A stretch of 64,000 nt of DNA from Yuukianura sp. NJ FZ-2021 (GCA_046563655.1 CM102287.1:10354001-10418000), one strand, 5' to 3'. Shown: positions 14,673-26,563, numbered from the stretch's first letter. Program-made: numbers and translations. Notes: generated from the sequence alone by a model not told the origin.

Positions 14673-15578
14673 CTACATTTTAGTTTTTGACATTTGAATA
14701 AACATTTTTGGAGAGAAAGTAACTTTTGGTTTGGCTTAGGAGAAAGTAAGACGCCGAGTGGATCAAAGATGCTTAAGTATTAATGCAACTCTCTTTGATT
14801 TTGTTTCTGGGTGTTGGGTTCTATTTTTGACTGTCCTTTGGATCTTCGCCACTCCATTTGCAATTCCCCAACTAAACTCTTACTTTCTCCCGCACTTAAA
14901 ACCTGTTAACGACCTCTGACCTCGGTAGGATTCATAGGCGGTAAGTCCAGAGGCAATGCCTTCCTTACGCTACTGTCAGTGTCAGTTCGTTGCTCAGCCG
15001 CATCATCCTCTCCCTCTCATCCCATTCACAGTCTCTCCACTTCTAAACAAAAACTAAACTTTTAAAAAAAATTAAAAAAAAAAACTTTTCTAAAAATCTA
15101 AAAGATCAACTTCCCCTTACATCAAAACTTTTCAGCGCTGTTTTAGACATCAAGTGTAGTTGGATTGTAGGAAAGTAGAAAGTTGAACAATTTCAACTTG
15201 AAATTGTAACCATCAAAGTGTAGTTGGAGAAAGTAAAAGTCACTCCTGGGTTGAACAAGGTTCTAGAAAACAAACACAATTTTTAGAATAACTTTTGATT
15301 TCGGTTTGATTTTTGAAAAAAGTCTTTGTATTTTAGTCTCTCTATTAGTTTTTGTAGACTTTTCTTCTACAAACTTTGATATTAAACTTGAGCTTACATT
15401 GTTAGCGTAGAGGTAGCATGAGAGCCCAGTCCTTTGGTTCCTCCGTTGCCCTGTTTCCAGCTCTCCAGTCACTTGACCTCTCTCTGTCCACATGACCTCT
15501 GTGCCGTGGGCTTGCTTTGTGTCTCTGCTTTTTAGCACAAATCATCAACTGCTCAACATGCTCCACCTTCTTTTTCAG

Positions 15579-16157
15579 CCAGAACACTGGAGTGCTATGA
15601 CTGCGACAGTCGTGATGACCCACAGAACGAAACGACCTGTTGGAACGTCGACAGAAACGACCGCGATGCAAAAAAACCCAAGACGAGGGAATGCCACGGG
15701 TGCTGTGTAAGTCCTATTCCATACAAACACAAACTTCTACTCAACTAGTAAACAATTATAAATGTTGAAACAGGTCAAATTCTACCACGACTTACCGGAT
15801 GGTAAGTTCCAATTTTGTAAATATCGTAGTGTAGTGGCATTGGAATTGGAGTTGACGCATTGCTCTACGTTCATTTCCAGAGGAACCTTTCGTCGTCAGA
15901 ACCTGCACAGAAATGATCGAAATCAAGTAAACACATCCACTTTGAATTAACTTCTAATGTTAACATGAATCTGTACATGTAAAATGGTTTTTAGCTACTT
16001 CATGGTGGACCATGTTTGCTTGAGGGAGGGCAAAGACCGTGGGAAAATGTGTTTCTGCGAAGACAACTTCTGCAATCCAGCCCCACCGTCAGTCCCTGCC
16101 CCACTCTCAATCCTATCCAGCATCCTCCTCCAGTCTCTCCGAAGCGCCTTCTCCTGA
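15579..16157 (+). CDS. qvr: quiver/sleepless, GPI-anchored Ly6/uPAR three-finger protein; exons 15579-15706, 15774-15801, 15881-15926, 15995-16157; signal-peptide exon not resolved
   Basis: Spliced translation LECYDCDSRDDP..TC..ECHGCC|VKF..VRTCTEMIEINYFMVDHVCLREGKDRGKMCFCEDNFCN plus a hydrophobic GPI-type tail. The FMVDHVC..MCFCE..CN signature matches Drosophila Qvr as recalled. The ORF track misses this gene. Confidence 0.88.
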
Positions 16158-17110
16158 CTCCCCACCAGTACCTCCCAATTTACTCACAACTACTATGTTA
16201 AACACTCAATAAATTACCTATTACATCTAAAATCCAGCACTTGTCCTCCATCTCTTTATTTAATTAACTGAGCAGATTCAGTAGTACATTTAGATCAATC
16301 AGTAACTCAAACCCTCAAGTCACTTTCACCAACTAAAACACTAACTAACGTGTACGTCCAAAACCTACTTAATATATAGTACTTACGTATTAGGTTCCAG
16401 GAAAACAAGAACTTAGCCAATTACCTACTGACCTGTGTTGTACCAACTAATAATACTAATAGTTTAAGTTTAACTTTAATTTAATTGGTGGCTTTGGTCC
16501 GACTTAAGGGTGATCCATTGACGAAGTAAGAAGACTGATGAGAGAGGCCTAACCTCGACGTCTGCAGTCCCTTCCAGTTCCAGAACTTCCACGCCATGTC
16601 CCAATGCACAAGACAACAAAGAACATAAAGAGTCCAGACGCCATTCCGTAAAAGGCGGGTCGTAAAAGCTGTGGTAACAGTGCACTGCGACTCACTCCAC
16701 TCGACATATCCCCATGCTCAATTCCCGCTAATTCCACGATAATCTGGCCAGGATATTGGAGCTGTGGCAAAATTATGGGAAATGAGGAATAAGGGTAAAC
16801 TGGATAAAGAAACCCAGAAGGGGAACGTACTGTAAGCACTGCACCCATTTCCAACAAATCACTCCTTACTTGGTCATCTTTACTAAAAACCTCACACTAA
16901 AACGAGAGTTTGAAAAGAACAATTGGAACAGTGAGACTCTCAGCCGCCGCATCTAAGTCTCATCTCAACCTCCATTTGAGTCGCCTATGTTTGAATCAAT
17001 ACGGAGACAATTCCCAAAGTTTAGTGTAAAAAGCTTAGGATTTATTCATCCACTGTTTCTAAACTGTGCGACCTGCTTCCAATGTCTGTCAACCACTGAA
17101 TCATATTATC

Positions 17111-18686
<1,576 letters not shown>

Positions 18687-19514
18687 TCCTGTGCCCACTT
18701 CACCCACCAATTCAGTGTCTCTCCCCATAACTTTTAATTTCTTCAACACTTTCACTCTTCAATTGTTCACACAATTTTTAAGACTATCAATCCAACCAAA
18801 ATGAAAAGTACAAAGACAGTCAAATAATAGCTGAAACTCAACTGACAAAGAAGTGGGCGTGTTTTGTTACTAAGCAGAGTTCGGTTTCTTTGCATTCCTT
18901 TGTGCGTCTAAACTGTAAACGTGTCAATTCTTAGAAAAGTGCCTACTCCTACCACAACGTAATTCTTAGAAAGAGCCCATGAACATTGTCATAAAATGTG
19001 GATCTTATCTCATTCAAACATTAAATGTCATGACCCCATCATTCACACCATCTTAAAATAGTAATGTAACTATGGATCACTCCAGTTCAAATTGTTATGG
19101 AAAAGAATGACTTACTCATCATCTTCTTCCCATTCCTCGCCAACTCCTTTGTGCTGCTCGATTTGTGGTTCCATGGTGCAGTGGTTGGTCACTTTGAATG
19201 AATGAGGAAACCCACAACTCTCCTGTCCTACTTTCTTCCTTTCTCGGATGAATAGCTGGATTGAAGTTAAGCGCAAGTGCGTGGGTTGTTGAAGGTGGCT
19301 CAATAGATCTGCCTCCCCAAACAGAGTCCACATCACACTGGGACTCAAATCCATTGCGAAACTGTTCTTTTGCTGCGTCTTCTTGTGGATTGTGCCAAGG
19401 ATTATCTCCAGCTGTCCATCAAAGTCCTCCACAGGAAACAGGCTATGCAACAAATTAAAATGTGGTTAGTTTGGCAATAAGAGCTCATAAAACTGTTGCT
19501 CAAATATAATCTCA

Positions 19515-19604
19515 TTTTCTCATTAAGTTACATTGCAAAGTGCAAGTTTTGAATCAGAATAGGCCTTCATAAGAGGTGTCAGATTTTAAGTAATCATTGG
19601 TCAA
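19515..19604 (-). ncRNA. SNORD60: Box C/D snoRNA, U60/SNORD60 (snR48-related) type, copy 1
   Basis: C box ATGATTA (19597-19591). Guide TCTGACACCTCTT is complementary to conserved 28S rRNA AAGAGGUGUCAGA and directly precedes D' ATGA (19570-19567). C'-like CTGATTC follows, then D-like ATGA (19523-19520) about 75 nt upstream of the 3' splice site at 19443-19445. Same architecture as recalled human U60. Confidence 0.75.
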
Positions 19605-19758
19605 CTATACATGGAAGCAATCGAATACGTAATGCATAAGACACTTACCTATTCTAAATGATAACTTCATCCCGATTGAAATTGAAACATAATTCTGAAA
19701 ATAGAAAAAATGATCTTTAGATATTGAGCCAATTCAAGAGTGTTTGAATTGGTTTCTG

Positions 19759-19841
19759 AGTATTCAGATAGGGGCGAAAGATAAATCCCAAATTGATCGT
19801 CATCTTCGTCAGATGAACTATGCAGTCATCATTCATTTACT
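19759..19841 (-). ncRNA. snR60: Box C/D snoRNA, snR60/Z15/U80 type (dual 28S guide), copy 1
   Basis: C ATGATGA (19832-19826); guide GCATAGTTCA (anti 28S UGAACUAUGC) + D' CTGA; C' ATGACGA; guide TCTTTCGCCCCTAT (anti 28S AUAGGGGCGAAAGA) + D CTGA (19767-19764). Terminal stem AGTA/TACT. D box is 67 nt from the 3' splice site. Confidence 0.93.
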
Positions 19842-19994
19842 ATGGGTTAACAAAGTTACAGTCACAACTTACCAGTTTAGCAAAGACTTGAAATCCATCC
19901 GGATCATTCATAACGTTTTCTGTGATAAAACAACCATTACTTTCATAAAAGAATCCACCAATTAACAACAGTATTTAAGATTAGTTTCTAAATG

Positions 19995-20080
19995 TGTCTC
20001 ATTGATACATTGCAAAGTGCAAGTTTTGAATCAGAAAAGGCCTTCATAAGAGGTGTCAGATTTACGTAATCATTGGTCAA
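19995..20080 (-). ncRNA. SNORD60: Box C/D snoRNA, U60/SNORD60 type, copy 2
   Basis: C ATGATTA (20073-20067), identical guide TCTGACACCTCTT + D' ATGA (20047-20044), D-like ATGA (20002-19999) about 77 nt upstream of the acceptor at 19920-19922. Confidence 0.75.
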
Positions 20081-20225
20081 CTCTACATGGAGATAATGGA
20101 ATAAGTAATGGATAAGTGATACTTACCTACAAATGATAACTTCATCCCAATGTAAACGTAATTCTGAAAACACAAAAAGGATCTTTAGATATTGAGCTTA
20201 ATTGAAGAGTGTTTGAGTTGGTTTT

Positions 20226-20310
20226 TAGTGTTCAGATAGGGGCGAAAGATAAATCCCAGATTGATCGTCATCTTCGTCAGATGAACTATGCAGTCATCAT
20301 TCATTCACTA
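20226..20310 (-). ncRNA. snR60: Box C/D snoRNA, snR60/Z15/U80 type, copy 2
   Basis: C box 20300-20294, D box 20235-20232, both guides intact. Terminal stem TAGTG/CACTA. 66 nt from the acceptor at 20164-20166. Confidence 0.93.
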
Positions 20311-20477
20311 CGTTTTAACAAAGTTATAGCCACAACTTACCAGTTTAGCAAGGCTGAAGTCATCCACTCAACATTCCAATAATACGATTTCTAAATGTAA
20401 GAGCAGTGGATTCTGAAAAAGAAAAAACCGATTGAGTATAAGAGATGATCATCTGCTTTTGGTTCATGCCAATATTT

Positions 20478-20558
20478 GAGTGTTCAGATAGGGGCGAAAG
20501 ATAAATCCCAGATTGATCGTCATCTTCATCAGATGAACTATGCAGTCATCATTAACTC
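20478..20558 (-). ncRNA. snR60: Box C/D snoRNA, snR60/Z15/U80 type, copy 3
   Basis: C box 20552-20546, D box 20487-20484, both guides intact. Terminal stem GAGT/ACTC. 69 nt from the acceptor at 20413-20415. Confidence 0.93.
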
Positions 20559-20611
20559 TTGATTTGTAAATGATTAAATTAACAGCGCTATTACCTATTC
20601 GTTGTAGTAAT

Positions 20612-21251
20612 TCAATCTCGCTCATCTCCCGAAACAATTTCTCTTGTATTTTGTGAGGAGAATCGTTTGACCTTCTCTCCCTTGGAAGCCAGAATTTGTT
20701 CAATGTTGTTCCCATGTGGGTCCTGGAACCAACCAAGGTTGTCTGCTATCAGATGATTGTTTTCACAGGAGTTGCAAGTCACAATTACTACGCCATGGGT
20801 GTACGCCTGCTTCGAGAAGGTGTAGGAATTGGAAGTATTGCATACTCTACAAAACAAAACATTTTTTTAAATTCATAAACAGAAACAAAAACATTCCAAG
20901 TTAGAATTTGTAATTAGAATGAACGTACTTGCATGTAAAGCTTAAGAACAGTTTGGCACCCACGTCTCCCAGTACTTTATCCTCCGAATGCTTGTTTTCA
21001 GTAAGTCCAGTATGAGTGAGAGGTCCATTGGTATTGAATCCATCGGTTCCAAATTGTCTCAGTAGATTACTGCTCTTGTAGAGTTCAACTTCCTGACTTC
21101 GAATCAACTGCCTTTGCAAGACACTGCTTCGCTGGTAAACAAATGGAAATGGATGGAACTTGCTCCGATGTACTTGATACCCTCTGCACTGGAGACAGAC
21201 GAAGTTCTTTATCACATGACTGAAGAGCAAAGGACGATGAAACACGGACAT
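20612..21251 (-). CDS. DNLZ: Mitochondrial DNL-type zinc finger protein (Zim17/Tim15/Hep1); exons 21251-20929 and 20846-20612
   Basis: Presequence-like N-terminus, then [59 protein letters not shown] (zf-DNL signature). Confidence 0.95.
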
Positions 21252-21324
21252 TTTCACCTAACAAACGATTAGTCATTTAGTTAATCGATTAATTAAACTT
21301 TGAAAGAAATTAGTGAAACCTTAC

Positions 21325-21350
21325 CAGTAGCGTGACGAGAGATGAGAAGT
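21325..21350 (-). promoter_or_regulatory. Short non-coding first exon of DNLZ starting with a pyrimidine tract (5'TOP/TCT-like)
   Basis: Minus strand reads CTTCTCATCTCTCGTCACGCTACTG|GTAAGG. The acceptor at 21258-21260 lies just upstream of the DNLZ ATG. TSS position is inferred. Confidence 0.45.
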
Positions 21351-23434: not shown

Positions 23435-26298
<2,864 letters not shown>

Positions 26299-26563
26299 TC
26301 AAGCGAATTGGTTTATGTTAGTTAGTTCGTCCTGGTTAAACTAGGAAGTAACTTAAGAGCGACGGTTGAAGGTAGAGTGACGACGGTGGCTCCTTATCTA
26401 ATGACCACAATACCCTCTTCTTCCTCTTTTGGATTGGAACTGGGTGAGTGTGACGAAATGAGTGAATGAAGTTTACAAATCCCAGTTCACTAAAAAATAT
26501 GTGGAAGTGTCACTGGGATGACTCGATGACTGGCGACCTCAAGTTGAGGTCCTCAACTGTGTT

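Follow-up and report, generated by a model that had tools for sequence, protein, structure and literature searches.

Which transcript hosts the small nucleolar RNAs (snoRNAs) that lie between the genes DNLZ and UPP in a springtail genome, and where does this transcript end? The question is raised by a stretch of 64,000 nucleotides from Yuukianura sp. NJ FZ-2021 (GCA_046563655.1 CM102287.1:10354001-10418000), which we refer to as the window. The window is eukaryotic with short introns. DNLZ, which codes for a mitochondrial Hsp70 co-chaperone, is located on its minus strand (coding sequence 21251-20929 + 20846-20612, 185 aa) and was identified by the Pfam domain zf-DNL (E 1.5e-27), the best named match being the protein of Allacma fusca. 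We found that the DNLZ stop codon is followed by five introns with one C/D snoRNA each, and that the predicted last exon of this tail is at the same time a first coding exon of UPP, the neighbouring gene for uridine phosphorylase, by which the tail joins two coding genes. The DNLZ promoter very probably drives an RNA whose introns in the 3' untranslated region (3'UTR) release the guides.

Host introns behind the DNLZ stop codon

All five introns are of the GT-AG type, 177-207 nt long, and are followed by four small exons and one exon of 327 nt (Table 1), at the coordinates which a first-pass annotation of this DNA had proposed. Splice sites were ranked with a matrix trained on only 14 coding introns, taken from the window locus and from a related locus, L054, which was the single locus obtained among 288 candidate stretches in a metagenome scan with a three-sequence DNLZ alignment. 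On this scale the donors of introns 2-5 belong to the top 0.1-0.2% of the 3669 minus-strand GT sites in the window, and the acceptors of all five introns to the top 0.0-3.7% of 4129 AG sites. From the end of the D box to the end of the AG we counted 71, 68, 79, 69 and 77 nt in introns 1-5; the spacing of 66-77 nt given earlier holds if measured to the start of the AG. Intronic C/D hosts carry a single snoRNA in each intron, with about 70 nt between D box and 3' splice site, and this arrangement is present in 5/5 introns of the window and 7/7 introns of L054, where the D boxes are located 72-92 nt before the acceptors.

The order in L054 matches that of the window, with DNLZ, the donor, seven introns with one snoRNA each, a long shared last exon, a second UPP first exon and UPP. 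DNLZ exon 3 is 81% identical between the two, the fourfold sites of UPP differ at 61/98 positions (62%), and the longest common word of the small exons measures 8 nt. This large divergence with the layout kept suggests that the donor behind the stop, the rule of one snoRNA per intron and the gene order are under selection, but not the number and order of the copies. In a tree of 18 UPP proteins the window sequence groups with that of L054 (support 99/96), and both are placed inside a seven-row clade with Allacma and Orchesella (100/100).

The first host donor, 20594, was confirmed at 17 nt behind the DNLZ stop; in L054 the distance is 13 nt, and none of 13 poly(A) hexamers was found in the exonic part between stop and first donor in either species. 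The first snoRNA must consequently come from an RNA that has passed through the DNLZ coding sequence, which argues for the proposed role of DNLZ as snoRNA host. One could instead assign the small exons to a separate transcript with a start inside DNLZ, either a non-coding one of the Uhg type or a UPP leader, or assume that DNLZ exon 1 is spliced directly to 20412, skipping the coding exons. Among known snoRNA hosts (TAF1D, GAS5 as host of U80, SNHG3-RCC1, SNHG4-MATR3) the last two are mammalian examples located upstream of, and spliced into, coding genes, and the exon chain does end in the UPP first exon. With the donor so near the stop in two distant species, however, a separate start would sit in conserved coding sequence, and there is no poly(A) hexamer to end a DNLZ mRNA before the first snoRNA; we regard such a transcript as very unlikely and retain DNLZ as the host.

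The 5' terminal oligopyrimidine (5'TOP) start that had been proposed for the first exon is not well supported. A pyrimidine tract does precede the first donor in the window, but it departs from the fly TCT consensus and has no counterpart in L054. A 5'UTR intron is found at a similar place in L054 (146-189), with a weak donor.

The guides and their ribosomal RNA targets

At the gathering cut-off Rfam gave exactly three matches in the whole window, all to RF00309 snosnR60_Z15 (cut-off 41 bits), in introns 1, 2 and 4. These copies pair perfectly with large subunit (LSU) ribosomal RNA (rRNA), over 10 nt with the D' guide and 14 nt with the D guide. Pairing was tested against non-springtail eukaryotic LSU, for which at least 53 rRNA contigs in prokaryote assemblies served. 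The loci were picked by a pattern with both snR60 targets and an allowed gap of 70-100 nt, so that a distance of 91 nt was not forced. When the target nucleotides are assigned with the fifth-nucleotide rule, 53/53 LSU loci among the matches listed show a spacing of 91 nt. Yeast snR60 targets Am817 and Gm908, likewise 91 nt apart (PMC5699541). With yeast snR60/RF00309, which corresponds to mammalian U80 according to PMC1821038, the copies have the C/D boxes, both guides and the target spacing in common, and they differ from it in being present as three tandem intronic copies. The snoRNAs and their targets are in themselves ordinary. Regarding the contigs, the stretches with the eukaryote-type LSU pattern (L001-L053) belong to prokaryote genome assemblies of the collection; seven of the listed loci were checked with Rfam and 7/7 are LSU_rRNA_eukarya, which points to contaminant contigs. 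The target pattern gave 0 matches in viral contigs.

Within a species the snR60 copies are 97-99% identical, between the window and L054 80-82%, which suggests that duplications were separate or were homogenised while the layout stayed. The five copies of the window derive from tandem duplication: two units of 468-477 nt each contain one snR60 and one SNORD60-like snoRNA, and the third snR60 copy is placed 252 nt further up. Two snoRNA copies of L054 pass RF00309 (61.6 and 59 bits). In fly the functions of snR60 are split between G1083a-d in Nop60B and A992 (Am1017, 91 nt before Gm1108) in Uhg5 (PMC11014333 Table S6), and the A992 site is presumably the Am817 equivalent. A snR60-like copy at L054:2324-2517 resembles this split state, having kept the A817 guide only and lost the G908 guide; an Rfam search with E values up to 1 did not report it.

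No Rfam cut-off is attained by the snoRNAs in introns 3 and 5. Of the two families expected in the first pass, snosnR60_Z15 was thus found three times above its cut-off, whereas SNORD60 (RF00271) attains 22.4 bits in intron 5 against a cut-off of 42; the best match of intron 3 within clan CL00066 is snoR1 with 20 bits against 49, and three copies of L054 likewise match this clan below cut-off. Like SNORD60/snoMe28S-G3255/snoR1 (CL00066) and yeast snR48 (sites Gm2791/Gm2793), both copies direct the D' guide to the same LSU site and have D' and C' boxes in register; they differ from the clan in their low scores and in the D box, which is ATGA and not CTGA. The D' guide pairs over 10-13 nt in 4/7 long LSU loci, the other three being without the searched 17-nt context. 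Its target lies about 2 kb beyond the snR60 targets, and it would select the second G of G-A-G, which we equate with Gm2793 of the yeast snR48 pair. Pairing to eukaryotic LSU is therefore in line with both guide assignments made in the first pass, to Am817/Gm908 and to the U60/snR48 sites. The copies in introns 3, 4 and 7 of L054 select the downstream G, as do all window guides of this kind. A further SNORD60-clan copy (L054:2053-2251) has two extra bases before the D' box, with which the fifth-nucleotide rule selects the G two positions upstream (Gm2791/G3253-like).

The intron 3 and 5 copies could be decayed relics, leaving only the three snR60 copies at work. Such a state would fit their sub-threshold scores and degenerate C and D boxes; in addition their predicted folds are not more stable than those of shuffled sequences (z 1.46 and 0.43), and a search for a second rRNA guide in them gave nothing beyond 11-12 nt chance-level words. 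What makes decay improbable in our eyes is the matching last intron of L054 (intron 7), with a copy 81-82% identical to both, detected by blastn and not by Rfam, which agrees with them in its guide, in the degenerate C box and in a small hairpin. Moreover, the C-box G-to-U and D-box C-to-A changes are mutually compensating, as by the pairing rule of the kink-turn they restore a U-A pair in place of G-C, and the window contains no other guide for the Gm2793-equivalent site at the Rfam cut-off. The hairpin, of 5 bp, directly precedes the D box in the copies with degenerate boxes (window 20010-19999 and 19531-19520 regions; L054:2725-2754), and its loops differ. With all five copies active, as we prefer to read them, three would serve the Am817 and Gm908 equivalents and two the Gm2793 equivalent.

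The shared last exon and the end of the DNLZ RNA

The exon 19442-19116, taken as non-coding in the first pass, carries an alternative first coding exon of UPP. Through its phase-2 donor the reading frame continues into the common UPP exon that begins at 18528, and translation from ATG 19174, which has a good context, yields a spliced UPP model of 358 aa with one terminal stop. Hexapod UPPs and related ones have two alternative N-termini at this junction. We classified 86 full-length UPP proteins by the N-terminus at the common-Y junction and found 59 'R|Y', 22 acidic 'DE|Y'-type and 5 other; several species carry both N-termini as isoforms. Both first-exon types are present and in frame in the window and in L054, the DE-type being the first. 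A third N-terminus was noted in a UPP isoform of Musca autumnalis (P0255), which is Arg/Ser-rich and by eye resembles a mitochondrial targeting peptide.

Upstream of the UPP ATG the exon is not conserved as protein. A 108-codon open frame across 19442-19116, which might have lengthened UPP at its N-terminus or coded for a protein by itself, gave no Pfam match, no word-index relative and no usable Atlas match; two HMMER matches consisted of many weak stretches, one to a YDG-repeat protein with a best BLASTP score of 27 bits, the other made up of 8 stretches. As L054 has two stops in this frame and credible homologues are lacking, we rejected it as a conserved extension. Two in-frame upstream ATGs, found in the window only, are possible starts of UPP. 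A protein fusion through splicing of DNLZ exon 2 into UPP is not supported either; the phases permit it, but the junction occurs in none of the fetched proteins, among which the longest DNLZ match has 284 aa.

Neither AATAAA nor ATTAAA is present in any tail exon of the window or L054; outside introns, the earliest AATAAA is that of UPP itself, which both loci retain. Within the shared exon 43 nt of short blocks are colinear with L054, a value reached by 1/500 doublet shuffles; the AT-rich downstream intron has 30 colinear nt, a figure without its own shuffle control. We regard the blocks as a candidate for a weak 3' end of the DNLZ RNA and/or the UPP promoter. No conserved RNA fold was found in them (z -1.63 and -0.04).

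The blocks would also suit two genes that are simply tail-to-head neighbours, with a DNLZ/snoRNA RNA that always ends at AAGAAA near 19237, a UPP transcript that starts independently a few bases on, and no dicistronic RNA. Alternative 3' ends are known from fly minifly (PMC1821038). At the DNLZ locus AAGAAA is the sole one of the 13 poly(A) hexamer variants in the window tail exons, it is part of an 11-nt block common to L054, and it is followed by a GU/U-rich stretch and directly by initiator-like hexamers. AAGAAA is, on the other hand, a weak variant which also resembles a purine-rich splicing enhancer, the GU-rich stretch lies 0-15 nt behind it and thus nearer than in the usual layout, and donor 19115 is intact and conserved. 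We consider strict neighbours a possibility to be kept in mind, though short of probable.

At the other end stands an obligate dicistronic unit, in which the 'DE|Y' isoform lacks a separate promoter and depends on internal initiation or reinitiation on a DNLZ-snoRNA-UPP mRNA. The acceptor, the in-frame donor and the good start context are conserved in both species, the exons from the DNLZ stop to UPP contain no strong poly(A) signal, and such mRNAs are common in fly with 159 pairs (PMC4528330). The spliced tail, however, measures 487 nt from the DNLZ stop to the UPP start and has 11 AUGs before the UPP ATG, a gap beyond the -34 to 319 nt of only-polycistronic fly loci (PMC4528330); together with the initiator-like hexamers just upstream of the UPP ATG in both species this favours an own UPP start. 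The shared blocks have no conserved fold, and the 'DE|Y' isoform occurs across insects, where the snoRNAs are hosted elsewhere. It seems unlikely, then, that one pre-mRNA yields DNLZ, five to seven guides and a UPP isoform translated across about 490 nt and 11 AUGs; if it did, a single promoter would control this three-product unit and thereby couple uridine salvage with ribosome modification and mitochondrial import. Spliced leader trans-splicing as a way to resolve a dicistronic RNA is not favoured, being reported absent from insects in PMC7986045, the excerpted text of which does not mention springtails.

In the model that we prefer, an RNA polymerase II transcript from the DNLZ promoter would be spliced through the five introns behind the stop codon. 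Each excised intron would give rise to one C/D snoRNA guiding 2'-O-methylation of LSU rRNA, and the small exons would serve as spacers. The last acceptor, 19443, would open the exon whose 3' end is the alternative UPP first coding exon, and for the 'DE|Y' isoform a separate start site within the shared exon is most likely. The DNLZ RNA would either end at the weak site in the shared exon or partly splice into UPP and end, as a dicistronic RNA, at the UPP AATAAA. Taken as a whole, with the DNLZ-hosted tail, the shared exon, an own UPP start and two possible 3' ends, we hold this model to be probable.

Several points weigh against it. The case is read from DNA sequence alone, and its conservation part comes from two species, with one relative found. 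The DNLZ and UPP proteins of Allacma fusca are assigned to contigs of different length with distant accession numbers, and linkage is not established there. The donor of intron 1 is middling (top 7% of the 3669 GT sites), and four host acceptors of L054 are weak (top 11-28%). In shuffles, 1883 nt are free of AATAAA with a probability of 0.23, so that its absence is weak evidence by itself, and initiator-like hexamers are common by chance. The sub-threshold scores, degenerate boxes and unremarkable folding of the intron 3 and 5 copies belong here as well.

The 3'UTR of the DNLZ RNA is predicted to measure about 450 nt if it ends at the weak site and 1650 nt with read-through. Direct targets of nonsense-mediated decay (NMD) in fly are enriched for 3'UTR length (median 423 vs 218 nt) and, in the excerpted text of PMC3962487, show no enrichment for 3'UTR introns or polycistronic transcripts, so that 3'UTR introns alone are a weak argument for NMD in a hexapod. 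Human multi-snoRNA hosts give many NMD isoforms (PMC4233243).

Table 1. Features of the DNLZ-snoRNA-UPP locus in window coordinates.
Feature	Coordinates	Strand	Evidence
DNLZ non-coding first exon	21325..21350	-	5' end approximate; donor in top 0.3%
DNLZ 5'UTR intron	21324-21258	-	predicted from splice signals
DNLZ exon 2, ATG at 21251	20929..21257	-	translated coding sequence
DNLZ exon 3: zf-DNL domain, stop 20614-20612, then 17 nt 3'UTR to first host donor	20595..20846	-	81% identity to L054
Host intron 1	20413..20594	-	GT-AG; splice matrix
snR60/Z15 copy 1, given from C box to D box; two guides, for LSU Am817 and Gm908 equivalents	20484..20552	-	RF00309 53.6 bits; pairing
Small non-coding exon, 72 nt	20341..20412	-	splice sites
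Host intron 2	20164..20340	-	GT-AG; splice matrix
snR60/Z15 copy 2	20232..20300	-	RF00309 49.5 bits
Small non-coding exon, 37 nt	20127..20163	-	splice sites
Host intron 3	19920..20126	-	GT-AG; splice matrix
SNORD60/G3255-clan-like C/D snoRNA copy 1, degenerate C and D boxes	19999..20073	-	sub-threshold Rfam; guide pairing; 82% identity to L054 intron 7 copy
Small non-coding exon, 47 nt	19873..19919	-	splice sites
Host intron 4	19695..19872	-	GT-AG; splice matrix
snR60/Z15 copy 3	19764..19832	-	RF00309 51.2 bits
Small non-coding exon, 46 nt	19649..19694	-	splice sites
Host intron 5	19443..19648	-	GT-AG; splice matrix
SNORD60/G3255-clan-like copy 2	19520..19597	-	SNORD60 22.4 bits; 81% identity to L054 intron 7 copy
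Shared exon: last of snoRNA tail; 3' 59 nt (ATG 19174) = 'DE|Y'-type UPP first coding exon; phase-2 donor 19115	19116..19442	-	splice frame, homologues
Short non-coding blocks in same order as L054 (19414, 19306, 19278, 19240, 19216); AAGAAA at 19237, initiator-like hexamers 19205, 19201	19196..19414	-	colinearity
'R|Y'-type alternative UPP first coding exon; initiator-like hexamer 18845	18643..18728	-	frame, homologues
Six common UPP exons; AATAAA at 17046, also present in L054	17111..18528	-	Pfam PNP_UDP_1; spliced model

Relation to known snoRNA hosts and neighbouring genes

The closest known system is Drosophila minifly/Nop60B (mfl; earlier dUhg6), whose 3'UTR introns contain six snoRNA copies, four of them DmSnR60, each at a distance of about 70 nt from the 3' splice site, and in which snoRNA release depends on the poly(A) site used, upstream sites skipping the cluster (PMC1821038). 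A multi-intron 3'UTR is by this precedent less unusual than the first-pass annotation had assumed. At the DNA level the DNLZ tail resembles it in the coding gene, the tandem copies, the single snoRNA per intron behind the stop and the guide for a G908-equivalent site, and the two last minifly copies have a degenerate C box, a further likeness to the DNLZ tail. The minifly host, in contrast, is a ribosome-biogenesis gene with a shown 5'TOP start (PMC1821038), and DNLZ a mitochondrial co-chaperone. The DNLZ tail is also set apart from minifly in that no upstream poly(A) signal was seen, dual Am817/Gm908 and SNORD60-clan guides occur together, and a neighbouring coding gene, UPP, uses part of the last exon. 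In the DNA the minifly-type layout, with snoRNA introns downstream of the stop, is seen in two species.

Fly G3255a/b are located in Uhg4 and G3253 in RpS9 (PMC11014333). With guides for the other sites placed in Uhg5, Uhg4 and RpS9, snoRNA hosts appear to move. Three fly gene identifiers that we take to be those of DNLZ and UPP gave 0 matches in the fly host table, which is a weak blank. A link to fly Uhg4, which holds A982 and G3255, was rejected, as A982 targets Am1007, 101 nt before Gm1108, and not the Am817 equivalent.

Dicistronic and shared-exon loci of Drosophila likewise combine two unrelated open reading frames (ORFs) in what may be a single spliced RNA, and monocistronic forms often arise beside it through a downstream promoter or an upstream poly(A) site (PMC4528330); the DNLZ-UPP spacer differs in being a snoRNA-host exon chain, and the term snoRNA is absent from the main text of that paper. 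With GAS5 and the fly Uhg hosts the DNLZ tail has in common the short unconserved exons between snoRNA introns. It is unlike them in having no evident separate promoter, coding exons on both flanks and no conserved TOP start. The earlier comparison to a GAS5/UHG-like non-coding host has to be given up, as the chain is flanked by the DNLZ ORF upstream and by the UPP start codon in its last exon.

A 3'UTR snoRNA cluster in a coding gene is already known; new are the mitochondrial co-chaperone as host and the exon shared with a second coding gene. We found no description of the DNLZ-snoRNA-UPP locus in the literature, in a search that covered few subscription journals and, of PMC4528330, the main text. 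A cluster of the minifly kind would have arisen once more, with a G908 guide as before but in a host that is unrelated to the first and does not belong to the translation machinery, and the DNLZ tail would have lasted over near-saturated synonymous divergence while the copies turned over. The exon shared with UPP may offer a compact test case, both for the NMD of hexapod mRNAs with many junctions behind the stop and for the idea that dicistronic RNAs can arise by way of snoRNA tails. Automatic annotation would be expected to break the locus up or to overlook the UPP isoform.

Synteny between the window and L054 ends at UPP. Downstream of UPP, several open frames of up to 347 codons were noted in L054:6100-10350; they are of no recognised kind, and the window has nothing that corresponds to them. 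Adjoining DNLZ upstream on the same strand, a 182-codon open frame at 22350-21802 (-), with apparent upstream exons to about 22840, has a hydrophobic N-terminal stretch and a Ser/Pro/Arg-rich tail and no Pfam match. A Dynamin-family (Drp1-like) gene with short introns is located at 23728-26317 (-). Convergent with UPP, Cys-rich exons at 15536-16157 (+), without Pfam match as single exons, end in a hydrophobic tail, and their product is presumably similar to a GPI-anchored protein of the Ly6/quiver type.

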